Below, in pieces: positions 1,306 to 15,758 of a stretch of DNA of 64,000 nt. The translations under genes were made by a program, and so were the position numbers. The DNA comes from Escherichia coli. GTDB lineage: Bacteria > Pseudomonadota > Gammaproteobacteria > Enterobacterales > Enterobacteriaceae. Where the stretch lies: assembly GCF_024223415.1 (NCBI RefSeq), contig NZ_CP100500.1; one strand, given 5' to 3'. Under the pieces are notes generated by a model. The model saw nothing but the letters and a program-made list of their open reading frames with translations, ran no database searches and was not told where the DNA came from. Every line of letters begins with the position of its first letter. The stretch's first letter is position 1.

Positions 1306-3207
1306 ATGTCAACCGGATTACGTTTCACACTGGAAGTGGACGGCCTGCCACCGGACGCTTTTGCGGTGGTTTCCTTTCATCTCACCCAGTCACTCTCTTC
1401 GCTCTTTTCCCTCGATCTCTCCCTGGTCAGCCAGCAGTTTCTCTCCCTTGAATTCCAGCAGATCCTCGACAAAATGGCCTACCTGACGATATGGCAGGGC
1501 GATGACGTACAGCGCCGGGTGAAAGGTGTGGTGACCTGGTTTGAACTGGGGGAGAACGACAAAAACCAGATGCTGTACAGCATGAAGGTATGCCCGCCGC
1601 TGTGGCGTGCCGGTCTGCGCCAGAACTTCCGTATCTTCCAGAACGAGGACATCAAAAGCATCCTCGGCACGATATTGCAGGAAAACGGGGTGACCGAGTG
1701 GAGTCCGCTGTTCAGTGAACCGCATCCTTCCCGTGAGTTTTGTGTCCAGTACGGTGAGACTGATTACGATTTCCTGTGCCGGATGGCGGCGGAGGAAGGC
1801 ATCTTCTTTTATGAGGAGCATGCTTACAAAAGTACCGACCAGAGCCTGGTGCTGTGCGACACGGTCCGCCATCTGCCCGAATCTTTTGAAATCCCATGGA
1901 ACCCGAACACCCGTACCGAGGTGAGCACCCTCTGCATCAGCCAGTTTCGCTACAGCGCACAAATCCGCCCTTCTTCCGTGGTGACCAAAGACTACACCTT
2001 TAAACGCCCCGGCTGGGCAGGACGTTTTGATCAGGAAGGCCAGCACCAGGATTACCAGCGCACGCAGTATGAGGTGTATGACTACCCCGGACGTTTCAAG
2101 GGCGCCCACGGGCAGAACTTTGCCCGCTGGCAGATGGAGGGCTGGCGAAACAATGCAGAAACCGCGCGGGGAATGAGTCGCTCGCCGGAGATATGGCCGG
2201 GACGGCGAATTGTGCTGACGGGGCATCCGCAGGCGAACCTGAACCGGGAATGGCAGGTGGTGGCAAGTGAACTGCACGGCGAGCAGCCGCAGGCGGTGCC
2301 GGGAAGGCGGGGAGCAGGGACGGCGCTGGAGAACCATTTTGCGGTGATCCCGGCAGACCGGACATGGCGACCCCAGCCGCGGCTAAAACCGCTGGTGGAC
2401 GGTCCGCAGAGCGCCGTCGTGACGGGGCCGGAGGGTGAGGAAATCTTCTGTGATGAACATGGCCGAGTGCGGGTGAAATTCAACTGGGACCGTTATAACC
2501 CGGCAGACCAGGACAGCTCGTGCTGGATCCGTGTGGCACAGGCGTGGGCAGGCACCGGTTTTGGCAACCTGGCGATACCGCGTGTGGGTCAGGAGGTGAT
2601 AGTGGACTTCCTCAACGGCGATCCGGACCAGCCGATCATTATGGGGCGCACCTACCACCAGGAAAACCGCACCCCCGGCAGCCTGCCGGGGACGAAGACG
2701 CAGATGACCATCCGTTCCAAAACGTATATGGGCAGCGGGTTTAATGAGCTGAAGTTTGACGATGCGACAGGGAAAGAACAGGTCTACATCCACGCGCAGA
2801 AGGACATGGATACCGAGGTACTCAACGATCGTACCACCACCGTAAAACACGATCATCGCGAAACCGTAAAAAATGACCAGACGGTCACGATACAGGAAGG
2901 TAATCGCCTTCTTATGGTGGAAAAAGGCGACAAGATCACAGGAGTACGAAAAGGTTCTTTATCTGAGAATGTCTTTCAGGACAGAGGCACGATTGCCGGT
3001 TCGGTGCATGTTGACGCTGTAGACAATGGTGGCGAAGGCAACGGTATACAGGCTTATACGGCAATTAAGGAAATTATGCTGGCCGTGGAGGAAAGCAAAA
3101 TTGCGCTGACGCCGGATGGCATTCAGCTACAGGTCGGGGAATCAACGGTAATCAGGCTGTCGAAGGATGGCATCACCATCGTGGGCGGCTCTGTTTTTAT
3201 CAACTGA
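1306..3207 (+). CDS. vgrG: T6SS spike protein VgrG
   Basis: 633 aa; gp27/gp5-like architecture with conserved gp5-type segment (IPRVGQEVIVDFLNGDPDQPIIMG); good RBS (ggaggttgctATG); followed by Eag chaperone and PAAR-Rhs genes. Confidence 0.9.
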   Translation: MSTGLRFTLEVDGLPPDAFAVVSFHLTQSLSSLFSLDLSLVSQQFLSLEFQQILDKMAYLTIWQGDDVQRRVKGVVTWFELGENDKNQMLYSMKVCPPLWRAGLRQNFRIFQNEDIKSILGTILQENGVTEWSPLFSEPHPSREFCVQYGETDYDFLCRMAAEEGIFFYEEHAYKSTDQSLVLCDTVRHLPESFEIPWNPNTRTEVSTLCISQFRYSAQIRPSSVVTKDYTFKRPGWAGRFDQEGQHQDYQRTQYEVYDYPGRFKGAHGQNFARWQMEGWRNNAETARGMSRSPEIWPGRRIVLTGHPQANLNREWQVVASELHGEQPQAVPGRRGAGTALENHFAVIPADRTWRPQPRLKPLVDGPQSAVVTGPEGEEIFCDEHGRVRVKFNWDRYNPADQDSSCWIRVAQAWAGTGFGNLAIPRVGQEVIVDFLNGDPDQPIIMGRTYHQENRTPGSLPGTKTQMTIRSKTYMGSGFNELKFDDATGKEQVYIHAQKDMDTEVLNDRTTTVKHDHRETVKNDQTVTIQEGNRLLMVEKGDKITGVRKGSLSENVFQDRGTIAGSVHVDAVDNGGEGNGIQAYTAIKEIMLAVEESKIALTPDGIQLQVGESTVIRLSKDGITIVGGSVFIN

Positions 3208-3234: not shown

Positions 3235-3696
3235 ATGCAGTTCACTTTTAATGAAGGCCACATTCAACTGCCGTCTCAATGGCAGGATCAGTCAATGCAG
3301 GTCCTGGTGTCCACAGATAACAGTGGCATCAACCTGGTCATTACCCGCGAAGCCGTTCCACAGGGAACCCTGACACCAGAGCTGTACCAGGAAACGCTGG
3401 CGCTGTACCAGGGCAAACTTGATGGGTACACCGCACATGCCTGCCGGGAAATCACTCTGGCAGAGGCCCCGGCCTGGCTGCTGGATTATTCCTGGAACGG
3501 TCCGGAAGATGAAGGGAATCAGGGGCGGATTAGCCAGATAGCCGTATTCCAGCGGCGTGGAGATACGCTGCTGACCTTCACTTTCAGCACCTCCTTATCC
3601 CTGAAGAACAGTCAAAAGACGATGCTGCTGGAGGTGATAAAGAGCTTCACCCCGTTGCCACCGGAGAATGATATCCAAAAGGACCAGCCGCGCTGA
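3235..3696 (+). CDS. DUF1795/Eag-family effector chaperone (EagR-like)
   Basis: 153 aa; N-terminal FNEG...LPSQWQDQS signature typical of Eag chaperones; sits between vgrG and a prePAAR Rhs effector. Confidence 0.65.
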   Translation: MQFTFNEGHIQLPSQWQDQSMQVLVSTDNSGINLVITREAVPQGTLTPELYQETLALYQGKLDGYTAHACREITLAEAPAWLLDYSWNGPEDEGNQGRISQIAVFQRRGDTLLTFTFSTSLSLKNSQKTMLLEVIKSFTPLPPENDIQKDQPR

Positions 3697-3715: not shown

Positions 3716-6700
3716 ATGAGTGAAGGACCAGGCGGGCCACAGGGAGCGACCGCAGGCGGTACGCTGGCAATGCGAATGCTTTCACAGCAGGCGATGGTCG
3801 CCAGCCAGATGAAACGGGCAGCCAACAACAAAGCCATTGCACAGATGTTGGCATCAAAAAAGTCTGGCCCCCCCGCCGCCAGGCTGGGCGATGAAATTCA
3901 GCACAAGAGTTTTTTGGGGGCGCTGGCAGGGGCCGTGCTGGGGGCGATAGTGACCATCGCAGAAGGTTGCCTGATTATGGCCGCCTGTGCCACCGGCCCT
4001 TATGCGCTGGTTCTGGTGCCTGCGCTGATGTATGCCAGCTATAAGGCGAGTGATTATGTGGAGGAGAAACAGAACCAGCTTGAATCATGGATAAACAGCT
4101 TTTGTGACACGGACGGCGCCATCAATACCGGTTCTGAAAACGTAAAAATTAACGGAAAGCCCGCTGCCAGGGCCGCCGTCACCCTTCCCTCTCCTCCCCC
4201 GCCTGAAGCAATACCCGAAGCCTCACAGGGGGAGCATTCATGGGGTGACATGGCCCTTGACCTGCTTGAATCGGCAGCGGAAAAAGCAGCGCCACTGGCT
4301 AAATCCTGGGGGAACGCTGTTATCACCCTGACGGACAGCAATGCCAGTTTTATGGATCGCGTCAGTGCAGGCGCATCGCTTCTGTTTCCCGCCGGTCCGG
4401 TATTAATGGAGTTTGCCACCATGGTGGGCGGGCGTGGCGAAATCAAAAAAGATGTGGATTTCCCGGAAGCCGGTGAGGACACGGCGCTCTGCGACAAGGA
4501 GAACAAACCACCGAGGATAGCCCAGGGCAGCAGCAACGTCTTTATCAACAATCAGCCTGCCGCGCGCAAGGGCGACAAACTGGAGTGCAGCGCGGCAATC
4601 GTGGAAGGTTCGCCGGACGTCTTTATTGGGGGTGAGCAGGTCACCTATCTGGATATCCAGCCGGAGTTCCCGCCATGGCAGAGAATGATCCTGGGAGGAA
4701 TAACGATAGCCAGCTATCTTCTGCCGCCAGCAGGACTGCTGGGAAAACTGGGGAATCTGGCGAAACTGGGCAAACTGGGAAACCTGCTGGGGAAAAGCGG
4801 GAAGCTGCTGGGCGCAAAACTCGGCGCGTTGCTGGGGAAAACAGGTAAGTCGTTAAAAAGTATTGCCAATAAAGTCATCAGATGGGTAACAGATCCTGTC
4901 GATCCGGTAACCGGCGCGTACTGCGACGAACGTACCGACTTCACCCTGGGCCAGACCCTCCCCCTCTCCTTCACCCGTTTCCACAGTTCTGTACTGCCAC
5001 TGCATGGCCTGACGGGCGTGGGCTGGAGCGACTCCTGGAGCGAATACGCCTGGGTGCGTGAACAGGGAAACCGGGTGGATATCATCAGCCTGGGAGCCAC
5101 GCTGAACTTCGCCTTCGACGGTGAAAGTGATACGGCGGTTAACCCGTATCACGCCCAGTACATTCTGCGCCGCTGCGACGATTACCTGGAGCTGTTCGAC
5201 AGGAATGCACTGAGCAGCCGCTTCTTTTATGACGCCTTTCCGGGAATGCGTCTGCGCCACCCGGTGACTGACGATACCAGCGATGACCGCCTGGCACACA
5301 GCCCCGCAGACCGGATGTACATGCTGGGCGGGATGAGCGACACCGCCAGCAACCGCATCACGTTTGAGCGCGACAGCCAGTACCGGATCACGGGTGTCAG
5401 TCACACCGACGGGATCCGGCTTAAACTGACGTACCACGCCAGCGGCTACCTGAAAGCCATTCACCGCACGGATAACGGCATACAGACGCTGGCGACCTAC
5501 GAACAGGATGCGCGGGGGCGGCTGACAGAAGCGGATGCGCGGCTGGACTACCACCTGTTTTATGAGTACGACGCTGCGGACCGGATCATCCGCTGGTCCG
5601 ATAACGACCAGACGTGGAGCCGTTTCACCTACGATGAACAGGGCCGGTGCGTGACCGTCACCGGGGCGGAGGGCTATTACAACGCCACGCTGGACTATGG
5701 TGACGGCTGCACCACCGTGACGGACGGCAAGGGCATTCACCGTTATTACTATGATCCTGACGGCAATATTCTGCGGGAAGAAGCGCCGGACGGCAGCACC
5801 ACCACGTATGAATGGGATGAATTCCATCACCTGCTGGCCCGCCACTCCCCTGCCAGGCGGGTGGAGAAATTTGAATACAACGCCGCACAGGGTCAGTTAA
5901 GCCGTTACACGGCGGCAGACGGCGCGGAGTGGCAGTACTGCTATGATGAGCGCGGCCTGCTCAGCAACATCACCGACCCTGCCGGGCAGACGTGGACGCA
6001 GCAGTGTGATGAACGCGGCCTGCCGGTAAGTCTGGTGTCGCCACAGGGCGAAGAGACCCGGCTGGCGTACACGCCGCAGGGGCTGCTGTCGGGGATATTC
6101 CGCCAGGATGAACGGCGTCTGGGCATAGAGTACGACCACCACAACCGGCCGGAAACACTCACCGACGTGATGGGCCGTGAACACCACACCGAATACAGCG
6201 GTCACGACCTGCCGGTGAAGATGCGCGGCCCCGGCGGTCAGTCAGTGCGGTTGCAGTGGCAGCAGCACCATAAACTGAGCGGCCTTGAGCGGGCAGGAAC
6301 CGGCGCAGAAGGATTCCGCTATGACCGCCACGGCAACCTGCTGGCGTACACGGACGGTAACGGCGTTGTCTGGACAATGGAATACGGCCCGTTCGATTTG
6401 CCGGTGGCGCGAACGGACGGTGAAGGCCACCGCTGGCAGTACCGCTACGATAAAGACACGCTGCAGCTCACAGAAGTCATTAACCCGCAGGGTGAGTCTT
6501 ATCTTTATATTCTGGACAACTGTGGCCGGGTGACGGAAGAACGTGACTGGGGCGGCGTGGTCTGGCGTTACCGTTATGACGCTGATGGCCTGTGTACCGC
6601 CAGGGTCAACGGCCTGGAGGAAACCATCCTCTACGGCCGGGACGCCGCAGGCCGCCTGGCAGAAGTCATCACGCCGGAAGGTAAAACGCAGTATGCGTAT

Positions 6701-8536
6701 GACAAATCCGGCAGGCTGACGGGTATCTTCAGCCCGGACGGCACATCACAGCGCACCGGCTACGACGAACGCGGGCGGGTGAATGTCACCACTCAGGGCC
6801 GACGGGCCATTGAATACCACTACCCCGACGAACATACCGTCATCCGCTGTATCCTGCCACCGGAAGATGAACGCGACAGACACCCCGATGAATCCCTGCT
6901 GAAAACCACGTACCGCTACAACGCAGCCGGAGAACTGACGGAGGTTATCCTGCCGGGGAATGAGACGCTGACGTTCAGCCGTGATGAGGCAGGACGTGAA
7001 GTGTTCCGGCACAGTAACCGGGGTTTTGCCTGTGAGCAGGGCTGGAATGCAGCCGGCCAGCTTACCAGCCAGCGCGCCGGACTTTTCCCGGAGGAAGCCA
7101 CGTGGGGCGGGCTGGTTCCGTCACTGGTGCGGGAGTACCGTTACGACAGCGCGGGTAATGTGTCAGGCGTCACCAGCCGGGAAGATTACGGACGGGAAAC
7201 ACGGCGGGAATACCGGCTGGACCGGAACGGCCAAGTCACGGCGGTGACAGCCTCAGGCACCGGGCTGGGCTATGGCGAAGGCGATGAGTCCTATGGCTAT
7301 GACAGCTGTGGCTACCTGAAGGCGCAGTCTGCGGGCAGGCACCGGATAAGTGAAGAGACTGACCAGTATGCCGGAGGCCACCGGCTGAAACAGGCCGGAA
7401 ACACGCAGTATGACTATGACGCCGCAGGCCGGATGGTCAGCCGGACAAAACACCGTGACGGCTACCGCCCGGAAACAGAGCGGTTCCGGTGGGACAGCCG
7501 GGACCAGCTGACCGGGTATTGCAGCGCACAGGGTGAGCTGTGGGAATACCGCCACGACGCCAGCGGCAGACGAACAGAGAAACGCTGCGACCGGAAGAAA
7601 ATCCGCTTCACGTATCTGTGGGACGGCGACAGTATTGCGGAAATCCGGGAATACCGCGATGATGAACTGTACAGCGTACGGCACCTGGTGTTTAACGGCT
7701 TTGAGCTGATAAGCCAGCAGTTCAGCCGGGTACGGCAGCCGCACCCGTCCGTGGCTCCGCAGTGGGTGACGCGGACGAATCATGCGGTGAGCGACCTGAC
7801 GGGCCGGCCGCTGATGCTCTTTAACAGTGAAGGTAAAACCGTCTGGCAGCCGGGACAGACCAGCCTGTGGGGGCTGGCACTCAGCCTGCCCGCAGACACA
7901 GACTACCCGGACCCGCGCGGGGAACTGGACCCGGAAGCCGACCCCGGCCTGCTGTATGCGGGACAGTGGCAGGATGCGGAATCCGGGCTGTGCTATAACC
8001 GGTTCCGGTATTACGATCCGGAAACCGGAATGTACCTGGTGAGTGATCCGCTGGGGTTGCAGGGAGGGGAGCAGACTTACCGGTATGTGCCTAATCCTTG
8101 TGGGTATGTTGATCCCTCTGGGTTGGCAATGACTTCGAAAATAGTCAATAAACTACCTTCTGCAAAAGATCTTGCTACAAAAAGGGCCAGTGAGTTATTA
8201 GCAAAGGCAACATCTAATACCCAGCGAAGTAAATTACCAAGGGCAGTTTCAGCTGTTGTTGATAAGAGAACTGGCAAAATATATTATGGAGAAAGTGGCT
8301 GGCCTCACCCAACAGAAATACATCCTACATTACAAAATAATATGCCATCAGCCAGTAAGGAGCGATGGGCAATCGAGAACTGTGCGGAATTTAAAGCTGT
8401 AAATGAAGCTTTGAAGGCAAATGCGAAAATTAGTGATCTTGAAGTTCATACAGTATTGGTAAAAACAGGCGAAGCTTTTCCAATGTGTAAGAATTGTCAA
8501 ATTTCAATATTTGGCGCTGTTGTTACAAGCGGGTGA
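3716..8536 (+). CDS. prePAAR/PAAR-domain Rhs polymorphic toxin (T6SS effector) with deaminase-like C-terminal domain
   Basis: 1606 aa; prePAAR motif AARLGDEIQH, hydrophobic helices, PAAR-like segments (NGKPAARAAV, NNQPAARKGD), long YD-repeat core, DPLGL demarcation motif, then ~140 aa divergent AT-rich tail containing CAE...PMCKNC. Confidence 0.9.
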   Translation: MSEGPGGPQGATAGGTLAMRMLSQQAMVASQMKRAANNKAIAQMLASKKSGPPAARLGDEIQHKSFLGALAGAVLGAIVTIAEGCLIMAACATGPYALVLVPALMYASYKASDYVEEKQNQLESWINSFCDTDGAINTGSENVKINGKPAARAAVTLPSPPPPEAIPEASQGEHSWGDMALDLLESAAEKAAPLAKSWGNAVITLTDSNASFMDRVSAGASLLFPAGPVLMEFATMVGGRGEIKKDVDFPEAGEDTALCDKENKPPRIAQGSSNVFINNQPAARKGDKLECSAAIVEGSPDVFIGGEQVTYLDIQPEFPPWQRMILGGITIASYLLPPAGLLGKLGNLAKLGKLGNLLGKSGKLLGAKLGALLGKTGKSLKSIANKVIRWVTDPVDPVTGAYCDERTDFTLGQTLPLSFTRFHSSVLPLHGLTGVGWSDSWSEYAWVREQGNRVDIISLGATLNFAFDGESDTAVNPYHAQYILRRCDDYLELFDRNALSSRFFYDAFPGMRLRHPVTDDTSDDRLAHSPADRMYMLGGMSDTASNRITFERDSQYRITGVSHTDGIRLKLTYHASGYLKAIHRTDNGIQTLATYEQDARGRLTEADARLDYHLFYEYDAADRIIRWSDNDQTWSRFTYDEQGRCVTVTGAEGYYNATLDYGDGCTTVTDGKGIHRYYYDPDGNILREEAPDGSTTTYEWDEFHHLLARHSPARRVEKFEYNAAQGQLSRYTAADGAEWQYCYDERGLLSNITDPAGQTWTQQCDERGLPVSLVSPQGEETRLAYTPQGLLSGIFRQDERRLGIEYDHHNRPETLTDVMGREHHTEYSGHDLPVKMRGPGGQSVRLQWQQHHKLSGLERAGTGAEGFRYDRHGNLLAYTDGNGVVWTMEYGPFDLPVARTDGEGHRWQYRYDKDTLQLTEVINPQGESYLYILDNCGRVTEERDWGGVVWRYRYDADGLCTARVNGLEETILYGRDAAGRLAEVITPEGKTQYAYDKSGRLTGIFSPDGTSQRTGYDERGRVNVTTQGRRAIEYHYPDEHTVIRCILPPEDERDRHPDESLLKTTYRYNAAGELTEVILPGNETLTFSRDEAGREVFRHSNRGFACEQGWNAAGQLTSQRAGLFPEEATWGGLVPSLVREYRYDSAGNVSGVTSREDYGRETRREYRLDRNGQVTAVTASGTGLGYGEGDESYGYDSCGYLKAQSAGRHRISEETDQYAGGHRLKQAGNTQYDYDAAGRMVSRTKHRDGYRPETERFRWDSRDQLTGYCSAQGELWEYRHDASGRRTEKRCDRKKIRFTYLWDGDSIAEIREYRDDELYSVRHLVFNGFELISQQFSRVRQPHPSVAPQWVTRTNHAVSDLTGRPLMLFNSEGKTVWQPGQTSLWGLALSLPADTDYPDPRGELDPEADPGLLYAGQWQDAESGLCYNRFRYYDPETGMYLVSDPLGLQGGEQTYRYVPNPCGYVDPSGLAMTSKIVNKLPSAKDLATKRASELLAKATSNTQRSKLPRAVSAVVDKRTGKIYYGESGWPHPTEIHPTLQNNMPSASKERWAIENCAEFKAVNEALKANAKISDLEVHTVLVKTGEAFPMCKNCQISIFGAVVTSG

Positions 8537-8540
8537 TTAT

Positions 8541-8978
8541 ATGTGTGAATTAATTAATGAAGCATCAAAATATGGGAAAGTCAATGTAAGAAAGATGGAC
8601 ATTGATTTGTGTTGTAAAAAAATAGAGGAAGAAGGGTATTCTGTTTTCGTTGCGTTCTATGATTTTATAAAAAAATATGGCGGTTTATATGGCTTTCATT
8701 CAGCTTACAAAGACACCACTATAAGTGAGGCTTTTTTTATAGATCCAGAAAGGGCCTCTAATCGCATTTTTATAGAAAGAGTCAATGATTATATTGAGAG
8801 AGCTGGTTACAATATGATTCCTGTTGGCGAGTGCAGTAATGGTCATATCACATTATTATATGGGGAAAATAATGTGATATATGGCGGCTTGGATGATTAT
8901 CTTTGGAAGTATGGGGATAATTTATCTTCATCAATTGATATATTGATTAATGGTAAGGAGGCAGTTGAAATTCCGTAA
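8541..8978 (+). CDS. putative immunity protein for the Rhs C-terminal toxin
   Basis: 145 aa from internal ATG (track ORF 8511..8978), starting 5 nt after rhs stop; AT-rich like the toxin tail; assigned by position only. Confidence 0.55.
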   Translation: MCELINEASKYGKVNVRKMDIDLCCKKIEEEGYSVFVAFYDFIKKYGGLYGFHSAYKDTTISEAFFIDPERASNRIFIERVNDYIERAGYNMIPVGECSNGHITLLYGENNVIYGGLDDYLWKYGDNLSSSIDILINGKEAVEIP

Positions 8979-8986
8979 GGCCAACT

Positions 8987-10909
8987 GCCAGGGCCAACGG
9001 CCTGGAGGAAACCATCCTCAACAGCCGGGACGCCGCAGGCCGCCTGGCAGAAGTCATCTCGCCGGAAGGCAAAACGCAGTATGCGTATGACAAATCCGGC
9101 AGGCTGACGGGTATCTTCAGCCCGGACGGTACATCACAGCGCACCGGCTATGATGAACGCGGGCGGGTGAATGTCACCACTCAGGGCCGACGGGCCATTG
9201 AATACCACTACCCCGATGAACACACCGTCATCCGCTGTATCCTGCCACCGGAAGATGAACGCGACAGACACCCCGATGAATCCCTGCTGAAAACCACATA
9301 CCGCTACAACACCGCCGGAGAACTGACGGAGGTCATTCTGCCGGGGGATGAGACGCTGACGTTCAGCCGTGATGAGGCGGGACGTGAAGTGTTCCGGCAC
9401 AGTAACCGGGGTTTTGCCTGTGAGCAGGGCTGGAATGCAGCCAGCCAGCTTGTCACCCAGCGCGCCGGATTTTTCCCGGAGGAAACCACATGGGGCGGGC
9501 TGCTCCCCTCACTGGTACGGGAGTACCGTTACGACAGCGCGGGCAATGTGTCGGCTGTCACCAGCCGGGAAGATTACGGACGGGAAACACGGCGGGAATA
9601 CCGGCTGGACCGGAACGGCCATGTCACGGCGGTGACAGCCTCAGGCACCGGGCTGGGCTATGGCGAAGGCGATGAGTCCTATGGCTATGACAGCTGCGGC
9701 TACCTGAAGGCGCAGTCTGCGGGCAGGCACCGGATAAGTGAAGAGACTGACCAGTATGCCGGAGGCCACCGGCTGAAACAGGCCGGAAACACGCAGTATG
9801 ACTATGACGCCGCAGGCCGGATGGTCAGCCGGACAAAACACCGTGACGGCTACCGCCCGGAAACAGAGCGGTTCCGGTGGGACAGCCGGGACCAGCTGAC
9901 CGGGTATTGCAGCGCACAGGGTGAGCAGTGGGAATACCGCCACGACGCCAGCGGCAGACGGACGGAAAAACGCTGTGACCGGAAGAAAATCCGTTTTACG
10001 TACCTGTGGGACGGCGACAGTATTGCGGAAATCCGGGAATACCGCGATGATGAACTGTACAGCGTACGGCACCAGGTGTTTAACGGCTTTGAGCTGATAA
10101 GCCAGCAGTTCAGCCGGGTACGGCAGCCGCACCCGTCCGTGGCCCCGCAGTGGGTGACGCGGACGAATCACGCGGTGAGCGACCCGACGGGCCGCCCGCT
10201 GATGCTCTTTAACAGTGAAGGCAAGACGGTCTGGCGGCCGGGGCAGACCAGCCTGTGGGGGCTGGCACTCAGCCTGCCCGCAGACACCGACGACCCGGAC
10301 CCGCGCGGGGAACTGGACGCGGAAGCCGACCCCGGCCTGCTGTATGCAGGACAGTGGCGGGATGGGGAATCCGGGCTGTGCTATAACCGGTTCAGGTACT
10401 ACGAGCCGGAAACCGGAATGTACCTGGTGAGTGATCCACTGGGGTTGCTGGGGGGTGAGCAGACTTACCGGTATGTGCCTAATCCACTGGGTTGGATTGA
10501 CCAGTATGGACTTGCTGGTTGCCCCAGAGCTCTGGCAAGGGCAATGAAACGGGCTAACAGAAACCTAGCTAAGAGTGCCGGATACATGAATCGAGCTTGG
10601 TATAAATTCAAAGGTTCTGCCGCCCATCATATTGTTGCTTGGGATGACCCCCGTGCTTTAGGCGCAAGAAAAATTCTGGAAAAATATGGTATACACATTG
10701 ATTCCGCAGAAAATGGAATATTTTTGAAACATGTAGATCCAAACTCTCTTCAGCCAGGATCTTATCATCGTGTTATTCATACGAACAAATATTATGCTGA
10801 TGTTGAGGCACGACTCGCAGACGCAGCTAAGGCTAATGGGAAACAAGGTGTTCTTGATGAGTTAGATGCTATCAGGGATGACCTGCTTTTTAATAGACTA
10901 ATTTATTAA
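8987..10909 (+). CDS. orphan Rhs C-terminal cassette (core 3' fragment plus alternative toxin domain with AHH nuclease motif)
   Basis: DNA ~8987-10485 is a near-duplicate of main rhs ~6598-8097; after the DPLGL motif the tail differs and contains SAAHHIVAWDD; lacks N-terminus (first ATG at 9167), so may be silent. Confidence 0.7.
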   Translation, partial: ARANGLEETILNSRDAAGRLAEVISPEGKTQYAYDKSGRLTGIFSPDGTSQRTGYDERGRVNVTTQGRRAIEYHYPDEHTVIRCILPPEDERDRHPDESLLKTTYRYNTAGELTEVILPGDETLTFSRDEAGREVFRHSNRGFACEQGWNAASQLVTQRAGFFPEETTWGGLLPSLVREYRYDSAGNVSAVTSREDYGRETRREYRLDRNGHVTAVTASGTGLGYGEGDESYGYDSCGYLKAQSAGRHRISEETDQYAGGHRLKQAGNTQYDYDAAGRMVSRTKHRDGYRPETERFRWDSRDQLTGYCSAQGEQWEYRHDASGRRTEKRCDRKKIRFTYLWDGDSIAEIREYRDDELYSVRHQVFNGFELISQQFSRVRQPHPSVAPQWVTRTNHAVSDPTGRPLMLFNSEGKTVWRPGQTSLWGLALSLPADTDDPDPRGELDAEADPGLLYAGQWRDGESGLCYNRFRYYEPETGMYLVSDPLGLLGGEQTYRYVPNPLGWIDQYGLAGCPRALARAMKRANRNLAKSAGYMNRAWYKFKGSAAHHIVAWDDPRALGARKILEKYGIHIDSAENGIFLKHVDPNSLQPGSYHRVIHTNKYYADVEARLADAAKANGKQGVLDELDAIRDDLLFNRLIY

Positions 10910-10922
10910 TAAGGGCATAGTA

Positions 10923-11456
10923 ATGAATGTTTATTTAATTCGGCATGATGTGGACAACTTCAAGTTTTACTTGCAAGACGAGAGTGACTTTCTTTCAGTT
11001 GCTGCTTTTGATTTTTGTGGAGAGTCTCTATTTAATGGATGGAAACCATACAAAATAGAGCTATTTAAAGGAAAAACTAAAGCTGAGAAATCATTAAACG
11101 GGGATTTTAATTCATCATGTTTTAGTCCAGGATTATTATACGTCGAACATTCTCTCGCAGATGTATTATCTCGTCAGGCAAATGATATTGAGTTATTAAA
11201 AGTAATCACCAGTGATGATCGTGATTTTTATTATGCAAACGTGGTAGGGAAAATACCAGCCTTACATTATAACAACAGACAAGAGCTACAAATTATGAGT
11301 AGAACACAAGAATATAAATTCAATAACTCCATAAATGAAATGTTAATATTTCGTGATAAAACATTACCTTCAAACTATTTTGTTACAGATCGTTTTGTGG
11401 ATATTTTTCAGAATGATTTTCGTGGGGTAATTTTTAAAAAAGTTGGTGAGATATAA
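10923..11456 (+). CDS. putative immunity protein for the orphan Rhs-CT
   Basis: 177 aa, AT-rich, immediately downstream of orphan toxin stop; assigned by position. Confidence 0.5.
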   Translation: MNVYLIRHDVDNFKFYLQDESDFLSVAAFDFCGESLFNGWKPYKIELFKGKTKAEKSLNGDFNSSCFSPGLLYVEHSLADVLSRQANDIELLKVITSDDRDFYYANVVGKIPALHYNNRQELQIMSRTQEYKFNNSINEMLIFRDKTLPSNYFVTDRFVDIFQNDFRGVIFKKVGEI

Positions 11457-11482
11457 CTTAATGCATTGAACATCTAACCCGT

Positions 11483-12015
11483 ACCGCTATGACCGCCACG
11501 GTAACCTGCTGGCGTACACGGACGGTAACGGCGTTGTCTGGACGATGGAATACGGCCCGTTCGATTTGCCGGTCGCGCGAACGGACGGTGAAGGCCACCG
11601 CTGGTGGTACCGCTACGATAAAGACACGCTGCAACTGACAGAAGTCATCAACCCGCAGGGTGAGTCATATCTTTATGTTCTGGATAACTGTGGCCGGGTG
11701 ACGGAAGAGCGTGACTGGGGCGGCGTGGTCTGGCGTTACCGCTATGACGCCGATGGCCTCTGTACCGCCAGGGTCAACGGACTGGAGGAAACCATCCTCT
11801 ACAGCCGGGACGCTGCAGGGCGCCTGGCAGAAGTCATCACGCCGGAAGGGAAAACGCAGTATGCGTATGACAAATCCGGCAGGCTGACGGGTATCTTCAG
11901 CCCGGACGGCATATCACAGCGCACCGGCTATGACGAACGCGGGCGGGTGAATGTCACCACTCAGGGCCGACGGGCAGGGAAAGATCATCAGAAGTTCACT
12001 TTTTGTACTAAATAA
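11483..12015 (+). pseudogene. truncated rhs core fragment
   Basis: ~11483-11975 duplicates main rhs ~6316-6807, then diverges into a short tail before a stop; no toxin domain; abuts the H-repeat element. Confidence 0.7.
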
Positions 12016-13400
12016 TTCGCATTTTATGTTTAAAAATTGAGATATTCCTCATTATCCGAAGCTGTTTTTTATTGCTTATACATGATCAAATACTCCTTAC
12101 ATAATTAAGGAGAACAAAATGGAACTTAAAAAATTGATGGAACATATTTCTATTATCCCCGATTACAGACAAGCCTGGAAAGTGGAACATAAATTATCAG
12201 ATATTCTACTGTGGACTATTTGTGCCGTTATTTCTGGTGCAGAAGGTTGGGAAGATATAGAGGATTTTGGGGAAACACATCTCGATTTTTTGAAGCAATA
12301 TGGTGATTTTGAAAATGGTATTCCTGTTCACGATACCATTGCCAGAGTTGTATCCTGTATCAGTCCTGCAAAATTTCACGAGTGCTTTATTAACTGGATG
12401 CGTGACTGCCATTCTTCAGATGATAAAGACGTCATTGCAATTGATGGAATAACGCTCCGGCACTCTTATGATAAGAGTCGTCGCAGGGGAGCGATTCATG
12501 TCATTAGTGCGTTCTCAACAATGCACAGTCTGGTCCTCGGACAGATCAGGACGGATGAGAAATCTAATGAGATTACAGCTATTCCTGAACTTCTTAACAT
12601 GATGGATATTAAAGGAAAAATCATCACAACTGATGCGATGGGTTGCCAGAAAGATATTGCAGAAAAGATACAAAAACAGGGAGGGGATTATTTATTCGCT
12701 GTAAAGGGAAATCAGGGGCGACTAAATAAAGCCTTTGAGGAAAAATTCCCGCTGAAAGAATTAAATAATCCAGAGCATGACAGTTACGCAATCAGTGAAA
12801 AGAGTCACGGCAGAGAAGAAATCCGTCTTCATATTGTTTACGATGTCCCTGATGAACTTATTGATTTCACGTTTGAATGGAAAGGGCTGAAGAAATTATG
12901 CGTGGCAGTCTCCTTTCGGTCCATAATAGCAGAACAAAAGAAAGAGCCAAAAATGACGGTCAGATATTATATCAGTTCTGCTGATTTAACCGCAGAGAAG
13001 TTCGCCACAGCAATCCGAAACCACTGGCACGTGGAGAATAAGCTGCACTGGCGTCTGGACGTGGTAATGAATGAAGACGACTGCAAAATAAGAAGAGGAA
13101 ATGCAGCAGAATTATTTTCAGGGATACGGCACATTGCTATTAATATTTTGACGAATGATAAGGTATTCAAGGCAGGGTTAAGACGTAAGATGCGAAAAGC
13201 AGCCATGGACAGAAACTATCTGGCGTCAGTCCTTGCGGGGAGCGGGCTTTCGTAATCTTGCCCTGCCTGCTCACCTCCAGGCACTTCCACTACATCATGA
13301 CCTGATCGGTGCCACCACTCCTCTTCACTATGACGTTAACCTCCCCTCCTTGACACCACGCTTTTGTCTACATTCTACGCAAACGGCAACTTTTATAACC
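11976..13400 (+). mobile_element. H-repeat (ISAs1-family) insertion element; boundaries approximate
   Basis: Homology to rhs ends at ~11975; contains the transposase ORF; right end not resolved by eye. Confidence 0.45.
12119..13255 (+). CDS. ISAs1-family transposase (H-repeat-associated protein)
   Basis: 378 aa; classic H-rpt protein sequence ([31 protein letters not shown]...); known association with Rhs elements. Confidence 0.9.
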
Positions 13401-13520
13401 AGTGTAAAAATAACGTGCCGCAATAGTCATACCTATTAATGGTAAAAAGCTGTCACAATTCATAAAAAACCTTAATATACGCCACCCTAAACATAACCAG
13501 CGTTAATGTAAGGTTTTTGT

Positions 13521-15758
13521 GTGGACTGGCTTCTTGATGTTTTTGCTACCTGGCTCTACGGCTTAAAAGTAATCGCGATAACGTTAGCGGTCATCATGTT
13601 CATCAGCGGGCTGGACGATTTTTTTATTGATGTCGTCTACTGGGTACGCCGCATTAAACGCAAGTTGAGTGTTTATCGCCGCTACCCGCGAATGAGTTAC
13701 CGCGAACTGTATAAACCAGATGAAAAACCGTTAGCGATTATGGTTCCGGCGTGGAATGAAACGGGCGTCATCGGCAATATGGCCGAGCTGGCGGCGACCA
13801 CGCTCGACTACGAAAACTATCATATCTTTGTTGGCACCTACCCCAACGACCCGGACACTCAGCGTGATGTTGACGAAGTGTGCGCTCGCTTCCCGAATGT
13901 GCATAAGGTAGTCTGCGCGCGTCCTGGCCCCACCAGCAAAGCCGACTGTCTGAACAACGTGCTGGACGCCATCACCCAGTTTGAGCGTAGCGCCAATTTC
14001 GCATTTGCTGGTTTTATTCTGCATGACGCCGAAGATGTGATTTCACCGATGGAGTTGCGTCTGTTCAACTATCTGGTCGAGCGTAAAGATCTGATTCAGA
14101 TCCCGGTATACCCATTCGAACGCGAATGGACGCACTTCACCAGCATGACTTACATTGATGAGTTTTCAGAACTGCATGGCAAAGATGTTCCGGTGCGTGA
14201 AGCCCTCGCCGGACAAGTACCCAGCGCAGGCGTCGGCACCTGTTTCAGCCGCCGCGCCGTGACCGCTCTGTTAGCTGATGGTGACGGTATTGCTTTCGAC
14301 GTGCAAAGTCTTACTGAAGATTACGACATTGGCTTCCGCCTGAAAGAAAAAGGTATGACGGAAATTTTTGTCCGTTTTCCGGTGGTGGATGAAGCCAAAG
14401 AACGCGAGCAGCGTAAATTTTTACAGCACGCACGGACGTCAAACATGATCTGCGTGCGCGAATATTTCCCCGATACCTTTTCGACTGCGGTTCGACAAAA
14501 ATCCCGCTGGATCATCGGCATTGTTTTCCAGGGCTTTAAAACCCATAAATGGACCTCCAGCCTGACGCTGAACTACTTTCTCTGGCGCGACCGCAAAGGG
14601 GCAATCAGTAACTTTGTCAGCTTCCTCGCGATGCTGGTGATGATCCAGCTTTTGCTGTTGCTGGCGTATGAAAGTTTGTGGCCCGATGCCTGGCATTTCC
14701 TTTCTATTTTTAGCGGCAGCGCATGGTTAATGACCCTGCTGTGGCTAAACTTTGGCTTGATGGTTAACCGCATCGTGCAGCGGGTGATTTTCGTCACTGG
14801 CTACTACGGCCTCACGCAGGGGCTACTATCTGTCCTGCGTCTTTTCTGGGGCAACCTGATTAACTTCATGGCCAACTGGCGCGCGTTAAAACAGGTACTT
14901 CAACACGGCGATCCACGTCGCGTCGCGTGGGATAAAACAACGCATGACTTCCCCAGCGTCACTGGCGATACCCGCTCGTTGCGCCCGTTAGGTCAAATTC
15001 TGCTGGAAAATCAGGTCATCACTGAAGAACAGCTCGATACAGCACTGCGTAATCGCGTCGAAGGTCTACGCCTGGGCGGTTCAATGCTGATGCAGGGGCT
15101 GATTAGCGCCGAGCAGCTGGCACAGGCGCTGGCAGAGCAAAACGGCGTGGCGTGGGAATCCATCGATGCCTGGCAGATCCCGTCCTCGCTGATTGCCGAA
15201 ATGCCGGCCTCCGTGGCGCTGCATTATGCGGTACTGCCGCTGCGTCTGGAAAATGATGAGTTAATTGTCGGCAGTGAAGATGGTATTGACCCGGTTTCGC
15301 TGGCGGCCCTGACGCGTAAAGTCGGACGCAAAGTGCGTTACGTCATTGTTCTGCGGGGACAAATTGTCACGGGGTTACGTCACTGGTATGCACGCCGACG
15401 CGGTCACGATCCGCGGGCAATGTTGTACAATGCGGTTCAGCATCAGTGGCTCACGGAACAGCAGGCCGGTGAAATCTGGCGGCAATATGTGCCGCATCAG
15501 TTCCTGTTCGCCGAAATACTGACCACGCTCGGTCATATTAATCGTTCAGCAATTAACGTGTTGTTATTGCGCCATGAACGCAGTTCTCTGCCGCTCGGCA
15601 AGTTTTTGGTCACCGAAGGCGTTATCAGCCAGGAAACGTTGGATCGCGTCCTGACAATTCAACGCGAATTACAAGTTTCGATGCAATCACTATTACTCAA
15701 AGCAGGTTTAAACACAGAACAGGTTGCGCAACTGGAGTCCGAAAATGAAGGAGAATAA
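13521..15758 (+). CDS. nfrB: glycosyltransferase NfrB (phage N4 adsorption protein B)
   Basis: 745 aa, GTG start; family-2 glycosyltransferase with N-terminal membrane helices; synteny with nfrA. Confidence 0.9.
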   Translation: MDWLLDVFATWLYGLKVIAITLAVIMFISGLDDFFIDVVYWVRRIKRKLSVYRRYPRMSYRELYKPDEKPLAIMVPAWNETGVIGNMAELAATTLDYENYHIFVGTYPNDPDTQRDVDEVCARFPNVHKVVCARPGPTSKADCLNNVLDAITQFERSANFAFAGFILHDAEDVISPMELRLFNYLVERKDLIQIPVYPFEREWTHFTSMTYIDEFSELHGKDVPVREALAGQVPSAGVGTCFSRRAVTALLADGDGIAFDVQSLTEDYDIGFRLKEKGMTEIFVRFPVVDEAKEREQRKFLQHARTSNMICVREYFPDTFSTAVRQKSRWIIGIVFQGFKTHKWTSSLTLNYFLWRDRKGAISNFVSFLAMLVMIQLLLLLAYESLWPDAWHFLSIFSGSAWLMTLLWLNFGLMVNRIVQRVIFVTGYYGLTQGLLSVLRLFWGNLINFMANWRALKQVLQHGDPRRVAWDKTTHDFPSVTGDTRSLRPLGQILLENQVITEEQLDTALRNRVEGLRLGGSMLMQGLISAEQLAQALAEQNGVAWESIDAWQIPSSLIAEMPASVALHYAVLPLRLENDELIVGSEDGIDPVSLAALTRKVGRKVRYVIVLRGQIVTGLRHWYARRRGHDPRAMLYNAVQHQWLTEQQAGEIWRQYVPHQFLFAEILTTLGHINRSAINVLLLRHERSSLPLGKFLVTEGVISQETLDRVLTIQRELQVSMQSLLLKAGLNTEQVAQLESENEGE

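Follow-up and report, generated by a model that had tools for sequence, protein, structure and literature searches.

An rhs gene of 4.8 kb whose product begins with a conserved motif and hydrophobic helices, preceded at short distance by a small reading frame, raises the question of whether the two genes encode a type VI secretion system (T6SS) toxin and the chaperone that it needs for loading onto VgrG, as the initial annotation of this DNA proposed. The window, by which we mean the whole 64-kb stretch of DNA that was analyzed, is E. coli chromosome adjoining cusS, and the locus forms an orphan vgrG island between cusS and nfrB. We consider it very probable that this locus is a vgrG-eagR-rhs-immunity cassette of an E. 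coli T6SS, with an Rhs protein that belongs to the class I prePAAR effectors. Such an architecture has been described before, and the cassette is an ordinary, catalogued E. coli T6SS toxin locus; the main value of the analysis is a clean annotation, with an EagR-type chaperone and a class I prePAAR Rhs effector, predicted to be loaded on the adjacent VgrG, at a place where RefSeq gives only the labels "DcrB-related protein" (eag) and "RHS repeat-associated core domain-containing protein" (rhs).

All genes of the cassette lie on the plus strand. The product of vgrG (1306 to 3207; 633 aa), a T6SS spike protein labeled "type VI secretion system tip protein VgrG" in RefSeq, matched the NCBIfam model TIGR03361 with 631 bits, as well as the Pfam families Phage_GPD, Phage_base_V, and Gp5_trimer_C, and is the expected loading site of the Rhs PAAR domain. 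The stop of vgrG is separated by 27 nt from the start of eag (eagR type; 3235 to 3696), the end of which lies 19 nt before the start of rhs (3716 to 8536), and because these gaps are short and the strand is shared, the gene order fits a single operon. A terminator scan revealed no convincing plus-strand terminator between vgrG, eag, and rhs, and promoter and terminator scans of the cassette stayed at chance level and were uninformative next to the short intergenic gaps. This vgrG-DUF1795-PAAR-Rhs layout, located apart from the main T6SS cluster, has been described for the vgrGO1-eagR-rhs-ct islands of E. coli (Ma et al. 2017b) and for EHEC EDL933, which carries vgrG1(z0707)-eagR(z0706)-rhsF (PMC7216683), the identity of our locus with these being judged from the descriptions only. 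The C-terminal toxin/immunity pair of the E. coli islands differs by strain, and some genomes carry the annotation "restriction endonuclease fold toxin" at that position.

The N terminus of the Rhs protein

The rhs gene is an intact open reading frame encoding 1,606 aa, with matches to RHS_repeat (245.7 bits in 10 stretches), YD_repeat (231 bits), Rhs_assc_core (70 bits), PAAR (59 bits), and DUF6531 (48 bits). Its prePAAR sequence, PAARLGDEIQH (3872 to 3904; aa 53 to 63), combines the first PAAR motif with the DxxxH element. The portion AARLGDEIQH (aa 54 to 63; nt 3875 to 3904), which had drawn attention initially, proved to be the sole AARxxDxxxH match when all six frames of the window were searched with a regular expression, the number expected by chance being about 0.07 as a rough estimate from typical amino acid frequencies. 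Among 62 homologues, A54, A55, R56, and D59 were at least 95% conserved and H63 was invariant. The Pfam family prePAAR_I (PF25799) scored 23.3 bits with the whole protein and 24.4 bits with aa 1 to 400, under the gathering cutoff of 25, and precomputed PF25799.2 matches are on record for proteins 96 to 97% identical to this Rhs. The motif was modeled by AF2 as a beta-strand with a pLDDT of 97. Before it lies an N-terminal extension (aa 1 to 52; 3716 to 3871) with a predicted helix at aa 16 to 47, for which pLDDT exceeded 90 over aa 21 to 40; prePAAR starts at aa 54 here, at aa 3 to 9 in most homologues, and at aa 32 to 40 in those resembling Tre23.

The motif is followed by a 44-residue hydrophobic stretch (aa 64 to 107; 3905 to 4036) that constitutes the transmembrane-domain (TMD) region and holds a GxxxGxxxG zipper (G68/G72/G76). 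The 19-residue Kyte-Doolittle mean exceeded 1.6 over most of this stretch, and its peaks of 2.13 and 1.89 were the highest in the whole protein; AF2 placed two helices in the region, at aa 66 to 92 and 97 to 128, and the stretch aligns to TMD1 of Tre23. Hydropathy, modeled helices, and homology thus lead us to predict that these helices are transmembrane, and the claim that hydrophobic helices follow the motif, within residues 1 to 330, was borne out. Two adjacent helices with Kyte-Doolittle values above 1.8 would be capable of inserting into a membrane, and the initial annotation referred to a "membrane-anchored" effector; the helices might accordingly anchor Rhs in the producer's own inner membrane, inserted by Sec or YidC, instead of forming a chaperoned translocation domain. 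We regard this as very unlikely, since the helices sit between the halves of one PAAR fold, the assembly of which on VgrG has to take place in the cytoplasm, and since homologous TMDs are held in a noninserted state by Eag, with insertion confined to target membranes or vesicles (PMC7773334, PMC12881460). In the published model, Eag keeps the helices from the producer's membrane and insertion is thought to occur in the target cell's membrane (PMC7773334), so that the prePAAR architecture stands while "membrane-anchored" is too loose a term for it.

The PAAR-like segments reported downstream of the helices are parts of a single domain. PAAR tetrapeptides occur at aa 53, 149, and 281, and an HMM search with Pfam PF05488 gave 59.3 and 66.7 bits (cutoff, 27), with the PAAR_motif match falling in two stretches. 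The first piece (aa 134 to 155; 4115 to 4180), which includes the second PAAR motif at aa 149, aligns with Tre23 residues 118 to 139 and was modeled with a pLDDT of 95 to 97. The second (aa 255 to 315; 4478 to 4660) includes the third motif at aa 281 and the cysteines C259 and C291, matches PF05488 at aa 266 to 310 and the sequence of 4JIW with an E value of 2.6e-7, and was modeled with a pLDDT of 89 to 97; confident beta-strands were predicted for prePAAR and both pieces. In class I prePAAR effectors the zinc site is split, with a single ligand supplied by prePAAR and three His/Cys supplied by PAAR (PMC7773334). Both cysteines were invariant among the 62 homologues, and the remaining zinc-ligand column, at aa 262, contained His in 42 of the 62 and Glu in this Rhs. 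The best PDB structural matches of the 400-aa N-terminal model were 4JIW and 4JIV, with TM scores on the target of 0.62 to 0.65 and E values of 0.04 to 0.2, which are weak because the model consists mostly of helices; Foldseek therefore lends modest backing to the modeled PAAR fold, and the point is carried by the Pfam and sequence matches. The N terminus is one "split" PAAR domain, in which prePAAR is parted from the rest by the two hydrophobic helices. Like the orphan PAAR proteins E. coli c1882 (4JIW) and Vibrio cholerae VCA0105 (4JIV), it has three PAAR motifs, a DxxxH element, putative Cys ligands, and a predicted cone fold, but the fold of about 95 residues is interrupted twice here, once between motifs 1 and 2 by the TMD and once between motifs 2 and 3 by an insertion, and is fused to a 1,300-aa Rhs cargo.

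This second interruption, a lineage-specific insertion of about 98 aa (aa 156 to 254; 4181 to 4477), begins with a Pro-rich part, continues with predicted helices, and has an AF2 pLDDT of 50 to 75 and no Pfam match over aa 156 to 254. A word-indexed homologue search with aa 1 to 400 returned almost exclusively near-identical E. coli fragments, from which the insertion could not be judged, and the question was settled by an exhaustive search of a representative library, which yielded 1,051 homologues of the N terminus (among them the 62 compared above), together with local domain mapping: in some 90 of approximately 100 diverse homologues, aa 155 and 255 map 0 to 6 residues apart, and the insertion is common only to proteins of E. 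coli/Shigella, Erwinia tracheiphila, and "Serratia microhaemolytica." Neither the insertion, nor the N-terminal helix of about 50 aa, nor the Glu in place of the fourth zinc-ligand His is discussed in the literature cited here. It is conceivable, if rather doubtful, that an E. coli/Shigella/Erwinia subfamily has a "doubly split" PAAR domain in which a conserved helical insertion, accompanied by the N-terminal helix and the His-to-Glu change, serves as a functional module. If so, the insertion would extend the prePAAR loading domain in a way not described so far, and it might provide an extra contact surface for Eag or VgrG, act on membranes, or determine specificity for the orphan VgrG. The insertion and the Glu residue could each alter loading, and in this respect they tell against our preferred reading of the locus as a T6SS cassette with a class I prePAAR effector.

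Downstream of the PAAR domain, the postPAAR region (aa 316 to 391; 4661 to 4888) contains a moderately hydrophobic helix at aa 320 to 335, followed by a Gly/Leu/Lys-rich stretch. Its hydropathy (Kyte-Doolittle value of 1.62 at aa 324 to 342) is weaker than that of the TMD region, and it aligns with Tre23 residues 200 to 256, which include the second EagR-binding site of that protein (PMC8636562). Membership in class II, which a hydrophobic segment after PAAR might suggest, was rejected because of the length of 1,606 aa, the YD shell, and the correspondence of this segment to the postPAAR helix of the class I effector Tre23. The region singled out initially (3716 to 4700; aa 1 to 328) does span prePAAR, TMD, and PAAR, and the N-terminal loading region as a whole runs to about nt 4918, including postPAAR and a cleavage motif.

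The closest solved relative of the N terminus is Photorhabdus Rhs1/Tre23 (PDB 7PQ5), which matched over aa 46 to 377 with an E value of 4.6e-33, a span that covers prePAAR, TMD, PAAR, and postPAAR; the VgrG-EagR-Rhs complex of Photorhabdus laumondii Rhs1/Tre23 has been dissected experimentally (Jurenas et al. 2021, PMC8636562). The two proteins share the order of a pre-motif segment, (P)AARxxDxxxH, TMD1, PAAR, postPAAR helix, and D|P cleavage motif, continued by a YD shell, DPxGL-17-DPxGL with the same spacing, and a C-terminal toxin, and in both cases rhs adjoins eagR and vgrG. They differ in the insertion of about 98 aa, located where Tre23 is continuous at residue 139, in the longer pre-motif extension of our protein (motif at aa 54), in the toxin, which is deaminase-like here and an ADP-ribosyltransferase in Tre23, and in gene order, which is vgrG-eag-rhs here. 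All of the features by which Ahmad et al. 2020 defined Eag-dependent prePAAR effectors (the motif, TMDs located in the first 300 residues, a PAAR domain further downstream, and the presence of an eag gene; PMC7773334) are present at this locus, with vgrG also adjacent, and the effector architecture proposed at the outset is thereby upheld. Their list (Supplementary file 1) contains the near-identical E. coli N termini D7ZHB4_ECOLX and U9YIV9_ECOLX (MSEGPGGPQGATAGG...PPAARLGDEIQHKSFLGALAG...) (PMC7773334). Class I is exemplified by Salmonella Rhs1-SciW, P. protegens RhsA-EagR1, and Shigella SF0266-SF3490 (PMC7773334), and unlike the class I effectors of that study, in which prePAAR lies within the first approximately 15 residues, our protein has prePAAR at aa 54 and an extra insertion in its PAAR domain.

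The product of the gene upstream of rhs

The 153-aa protein encoded immediately upstream of rhs had been assigned a DUF1795/Eag signature, and an HMM search agreed: PF08786 (DcrB, formerly DUF1795) matched end to end with 96 bits against a cutoff of 27.2, with aa 7 to 137 on profile positions 1 to 127 of 127. When a profile of 13 sequences was compared with the PDB, EagT6 was recovered with an E value of 3e-11 and SciW with one of 6e-5; the profile was required to recover SciW, since a search with the single sequence found EagT6 and no SciW at an E value of ≤1. The protein is thus nearer in sequence to the class II chaperone EagT6 than to SciW, a difference from the class I systems of Ahmad et al. 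Its AF2 model (pLDDT, 85.3; pTM, 0.81) gave 6XRF, 6XRB, 6XRR, and 1TU1 as top Foldseek matches, with TM scores of 0.64 to 0.72, and ranks 1 to 12 were all chains of EagT6 or SciW (probability, 1.00; TM score, 0.60 to 0.72). The modeled structure is that of an Eag fold.

Eleven residues of EagT6 contact the TMDs of its effector: I22, I24, S37, S41, Q58, A62, L66, L98, Q102, F104, and I113 (PMC7773334). In a HMMER alignment, six were identical or conservatively replaced in our protein (I22>M21, I24>V23, S41>T37, L66>L62, Q102>Q101, and I113>L113), three were changed (S37>N33, Q58>T54, and A62>Y58), and L98 and F104 fell beside indels. M21, L62, Q101, and L113 were invariant or nearly so in the alignment of Eag proteins, and the conserved residues therefore include the knob L62 and the polar clamp Q101.

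The family name DcrB, the corresponding RefSeq label, the caution of Ahmad et al. that DUF1795 searches recover DcrB homologues too (PMC7773334), and the presence of DcrB itself (6E8A) at rank 29 among the fold matches of the model might together suggest a DUF1795 protein of the DcrB type with no role in secretion, such as a periplasmic lipoprotein, whose position upstream of rhs is accidental. We find this extremely unlikely. On inspection, the N terminus, MQFTFNEGHIQLPSQWQDQS, had no signal peptide, lipobox, or hydrophobic h-region, and the sole Cys is at aa 70; EagT6 and SciW outrank DcrB both by sequence and by fold; the knob and the polar clamp are conserved; and the gene lies 19 nt upstream of a prePAAR effector gene, about 90% of which are directly beside an eag gene according to Ahmad et al. 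(PMC7773334). A DcrB lipoprotein was rejected as a candidate on the N terminus and the ranking of the matches. For the family, there is a precedent in Shigella SF0266, which copurified with its Eag (PMC7773334).

Putative cleavage motifs, toxin, and immunity gene

Both sets of motifs for the double autocleavage of T6SS Rhs toxins, as known from Tre23 and Aeromonas dhakensis TseI and defined in PMC8636562, are present, and cleavage is predicted at both ends of the shell. The putative N-terminal motif, TD|PVDPVTGA (aa 392 to 401; 4889 to 4918), stands where DUF6531 and the Rhs shell begin and corresponds in alignment to the D-P-V/I-x-x-x-T/S-G motif of homologues; in Tre23, cleavage occurs at D288|P289 within PVYVASGE (PMC8636562). 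The C-terminal aspartyl autoprotease motifs (aa 1444 to 1470; 8045 to 8125), located with a regular expression, are DPLGL at aa 1444 and DPSGL at aa 1466, separated by 17 residues, in a region to which Rhs_assc_core (TIGR03696) contributed its 70-bit match.

Beyond these motifs lies a C-terminal toxin domain (aa 1472 to 1606; 8129 to 8533) of deaminase-like character (CAE ... PMCKNC), which scored 23.1 bits with Pfam YwqJ-deaminase, under the cutoff of 25.9, and gave no PDB sequence match even at an E value of ≤10. The putative immunity gene (8511 to 8978), of which the true start may be 3' of the listed TTG, encodes a candidate SUKH-3 protein (PF14433, 48.5 bits; cutoff, 23). This deaminase-like toxin with its SUKH-3 immunity protein and the PAAR-domain insertion are possibly worth study, and neither alters the overall reading of the locus.

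Predicted delivery and distribution of the cassette

Experiments on homologues (EagT6-Tse6, SciW-Rhs1, and EagR-Tre23) suggest how the cassette would function. In the cytoplasm of the producer, an Eag dimer would clamp the hydrophobic helices, and possibly the postPAAR helix too, so that they stay soluble and do not enter the membrane of the producer itself. The prePAAR segment would fold back onto the PAAR pieces, with H63 joining C259 and C291 in the zinc site, and the completed PAAR cone would then cap the beta-helix of the VgrG encoded just upstream. The loaded spike would be fired by a T6SS whose genes lie elsewhere in the genome into a neighboring bacterium, where the released helices may help the toxin across the inner membrane and autocleavage would free it, sibling cells being protected by the SUKH-3 protein. 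Eag-dependent stability, T6SS export, and prePAAR-dependent VgrG binding are expected from the homologues (PMC7773334, PMC8636562), and a physical Eag-Rhs-VgrG interaction is predicted by analogy for this allele.

The architecture could be read correctly and the cassette nonetheless be an unused relic, an orphan vgrG island whose host strain lacks an active T6SS to match it and which is kept only by linkage or by the value of its immunity gene. The surroundings of the cassette revealed no T6SS core genes, its immediate downstream flank holds orphan rhs C-terminal fragments and an ISAs1 element, a slippage-prone 9-bp tandem repeat occurs at 4739 to 4783 within the postPAAR region, and truncated or frame-shifted versions are frequent among database relatives; in NCTC10444, the N-terminal region is identical, yet rhs is annotated as frameshifted, so that decay of the locus does occur. 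Against this, the vgrG, eag, and 4.8-kb rhs reading frames are all intact here, EHEC strains with the island have a T6SS-2 cluster elsewhere (PMC7216683), and vgrGO1 and eagR were reported to be necessary for Rhs-CT delivery in E. coli, according to the summary of Ma et al. 2017b given in PMC6730261. The N-terminal region is, moreover, 95 to 100% conserved across more than 2,000 E. coli genomes, and we judge it unlikely that the cassette is a relic. The locus was present at ≥95% identity in 2,296 of 5,426 complete E. coli genomes (about 40%) and is therefore a common module of interbacterial competition rather than a rarity.

A catalogued VgrG-EagR-prePAAR-Rhs cassette

The feature is a well-conserved E. 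coli VgrG-EagR-prePAAR-Rhs cassette that has already been catalogued. Every element of the initial annotation, which had read an AARxxDxxxH motif, hydrophobic helices, and PAAR-like segments in an Rhs protein encoded after an Eag-type (DUF1795) open reading frame (ORF), was confirmed, and the architecture that it proposed is supported by the Eag fold, by a match to Tre23 (Rhs1) of Photorhabdus laumondii, and by catalogued E. coli N termini. On the plus strand, cusS (ending at 712) is followed by vgrG (1306-3207; 633 aa), the eag candidate (3235-3696; 153 aa), rhs (3716-8536; 1606 aa), and an ORF for a SUKH-3 immunity-type protein (8511-8978); vgrG and eag are separated by 27 nt and eag and rhs by 19 nt, and AGGGA lies 5' of the rhs ATG. 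The window is E. coli chromosome. Several complete genomes carry the 1.7 kb surrounding the finding at 100% identity, and 2296 of the 5426 complete E. coli genomes compared have it at ≥95% identity. The corresponding stretch of strain NCTC10444 (NZ_LR134092.1) is flanked by cusS and nfrB. Across the vgrG-eag-rhs 5' region this strain and the window do not differ (100% identity), yet its rhs (12617-17423) is annotated by RefSeq as a frameshifted pseudogene, whereas the rhs in the window is intact at 1606 aa.

Ahmad et al. screened Escherichia and Shigella genomes, and Shigella SF0266 was copurified with an Eag (PMC7773334). Over the N-terminal excerpts available for two E. coli entries in Supplementary file 1 of that study (Ahmad et al. 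2020), D7ZHB4_ECOLX and U9YIV9_ECOLX, the only difference from our Rhs is one residue, N38D. An island of enterohemorrhagic E. coli EDL933, vgrG1(z0707)-eagR(z0706)-rhsF, has been described (PMC7216683), and a review (PMC6730261) that summarizes Ma et al. reports that eagR and vgrGO1 are needed for Rhs-CT delivery in E. coli; judged from these descriptions, the loci appear equivalent to that in the window.

Organization of the Rhs N terminus

The sole AARxxDxxxH match in the six frames of the window, AARLGDEIQH, lies at aa 54-63 of Rhs (nt 3875-3904), within a prePAAR segment spanning aa 53-63. The transmembrane domain (TMD; aa 64-107) follows immediately, as the hydrophobic-helix claim had it, and Kyte-Doolittle 19-residue means peak there at 2.13 and 1.89, above those of any other part of the protein; the domain contains a GxxxGxxxG zipper, and helices are predicted at aa 66-92 and 97-128 (AlphaFold2, 62-sequence alignment). 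The PAAR-like segments correspond to two pieces, aa 134-155 and 255-315, with Pfam PAAR_motif scores of 59-67 bits (cutoff, 27) and PAAR tetrapeptides at aa 53, 149, and 281. A postPAAR helix (aa 320-335; Kyte-Doolittle mean, 1.62) leads into a Gly/Leu/Lys-rich stretch, and TD|PVDPVTGA (aa 392-401), a putative autocleavage motif, marks the start of DUF6531, after which come the YD shell, DPLGL-17 aa-DPSGL (aa 1444-1470), and the C-terminal toxin.

In 62 homologues, H63, C259, and C291 never vary, and conservation of A54, A55, R56, and D59 is 95% or higher; this pattern fits the "split PAAR" model from the literature, whereby prePAAR contributes one zinc ligand (PMC7773334). AlphaFold2 pLDDT values were 89-97 for prePAAR and both PAAR pieces, and the best PDB matches of the N-terminal model were the PAAR proteins 4JIW and 4JIV (TM on target, 0.62-0.65), with weak E values because the 400-residue model is mostly helical. 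The nearest solved relative is Tre23 (PDB 7PQ5; E, 4.6e-33), the N terminus of which was parsed by Jurenas et al. into prePAAR, TMD1, PAAR, and postPAAR; EagR binds at TMD1 and postPAAR, VgrG is engaged through prePAAR-PAAR, and autocleavage occurs at D288|P289 (PMC8636562). All of these N-terminal parts are also present in the E. coli Rhs.

The Eag candidate and its putative role

The assignment of the upstream ORF to DUF1795 held, with a score of 96 bits over the whole of PF08786 (DcrB, formerly DUF1795). A profile built from 13 homologues, which came from E. coli, Salmonella, Citrobacter, Kluyvera, and more remote sources, matched both EagT6 (E, 3e-11) and SciW (E, 6e-5) when searched against the PDB. 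In the AlphaFold2 model (pLDDT, 85; pTM, 0.81), the 12 top Foldseek matches were EagT6 and SciW chains, whereas DcrB appeared at rank 29, and no signal peptide or lipobox was found at the N terminus; the protein is therefore predicted to be cytoplasmic rather than a DcrB-type lipoprotein, and a DcrB-type function is poorly supported. Of the EagT6 residues that Ahmad et al. list as touching the TMD (11 in all; PMC7773334), six are kept or conservatively replaced in this protein, among them the "knob" L66 (L62) and the polar clamp Q102 (Q101); another three differ, and the remaining two adjoin indels. By sequence, this Eag, which is encoded next to a class I Rhs effector, resembles EagT6, a class II chaperone, more than it does SciW, a class I chaperone; the Salmonella, Citrobacter, and Kluyvera copies are 75-88% identical.

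The proposal that the hydrophobic helices anchor Rhs in the membrane of the producing cell is poorly supported. By analogy with homologues, we suggest that for this class I prePAAR Rhs effector an Eag dimer would keep both hydrophobic helices in the cytoplasm, and might do the same for the postPAAR helix; the prePAAR and PAAR pieces would build a cone capping the adjacent VgrG. A T6SS encoded elsewhere would fire the spike, the helices would enter the inner membrane of the target, autocleavage would free the toxin, and the SUKH-3 protein would shield kin cells.

Within-family variation, possible decay, and the toxin module

Four variations from the textbook prePAAR effector are compatible with membership, and none contradicts it; no discussion of them was met in the papers cited here, which were consulted on the family as a whole. 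After an exhaustive search (1051 homologues), residues 155 and 255 mapped 0-6 positions apart in roughly nine-tenths of diverse representatives, and aa 156-254 (window 4181-4477) therefore constitute a ~98-aa insertion that separates the second PAAR motif from the third. Only other E. coli/Shigella copies (85-89% identity) and the proteins of Erwinia tracheiphila and "Serratia microhaemolytica" share it; in the last two its identity is ~40%, against 72-73% for the PAAR pieces, and a few other lineages carry shorter, unrelated insertions at the same site. The insertion has a Pro-rich start, a low-confidence helical prediction (pLDDT, 50-75), no Pfam match, and its best conservation in the last third, and it is the sole element that might be new. 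An N-terminal extension (aa 1-52; window 3716-3871) includes a helix predicted with confidence at aa 16-47 (pLDDT >90 over aa 21-40), such that prePAAR starts at aa 54, versus aa 3-9 in most homologues and aa 32-40 in Tre23-like ones. The zinc-ligand column at aa 262 (window 4499-4501), the CxxH position after C259, holds His in 42 of the 62 homologues and Glu here, as in E. coli relatives, and Pfam prePAAR_I scored 23.3-24.4 bits, just below the cutoff of 25.

An imperfect 9-bp tandem repeat, CTGGGGAAA (five copies; window 4739-4813), for which a 21-bp period was also reported, encodes the (L-G-K)n of postPAAR, and three proteins that databases name "PAAR domain-containing" (P0019-P0021; 377-379 aa) go out of frame inside postPAAR. 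A frameshift in postPAAR could plausibly have given rise to loci with prePAAR-PAAR and Rhs on separate ORFs, for example the SF0266/SF0267 arrangement that Ahmad et al. describe (PMC7773334). Of the rival readings, only decay into an unused cassette carries real weight. Relatives with truncations or frameshifts are frequent, and no T6SS core genes were seen near the cassette; every ORF of the cassette, however, is intact here.

In the intact effector, the C-terminal toxin (aa 1472-1606; window 8129-8533) carries two motifs characteristic of zinc deaminases, CAE at aa 1556 and PMCKNC at aa 1589. Against Pfam YwqJ-deaminase it scored 23.1 bits, below the threshold of 25.9, and a PDB sequence search with this domain returned no match. 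The SUKH-3 ORF lies 3' of it. Farther 3' is an array of orphan modules (9167-13255). The first, at 9167-10909, is an rhs C-terminal fragment that carries an AHH (HNH/EndoVII) nuclease domain; next come a 177-aa ORF (10923-11456) without a Pfam match, possibly the immunity gene of that fragment, another RHS-repeat fragment (11545-12015), and an ISAs1-family transposase (12119-13255).
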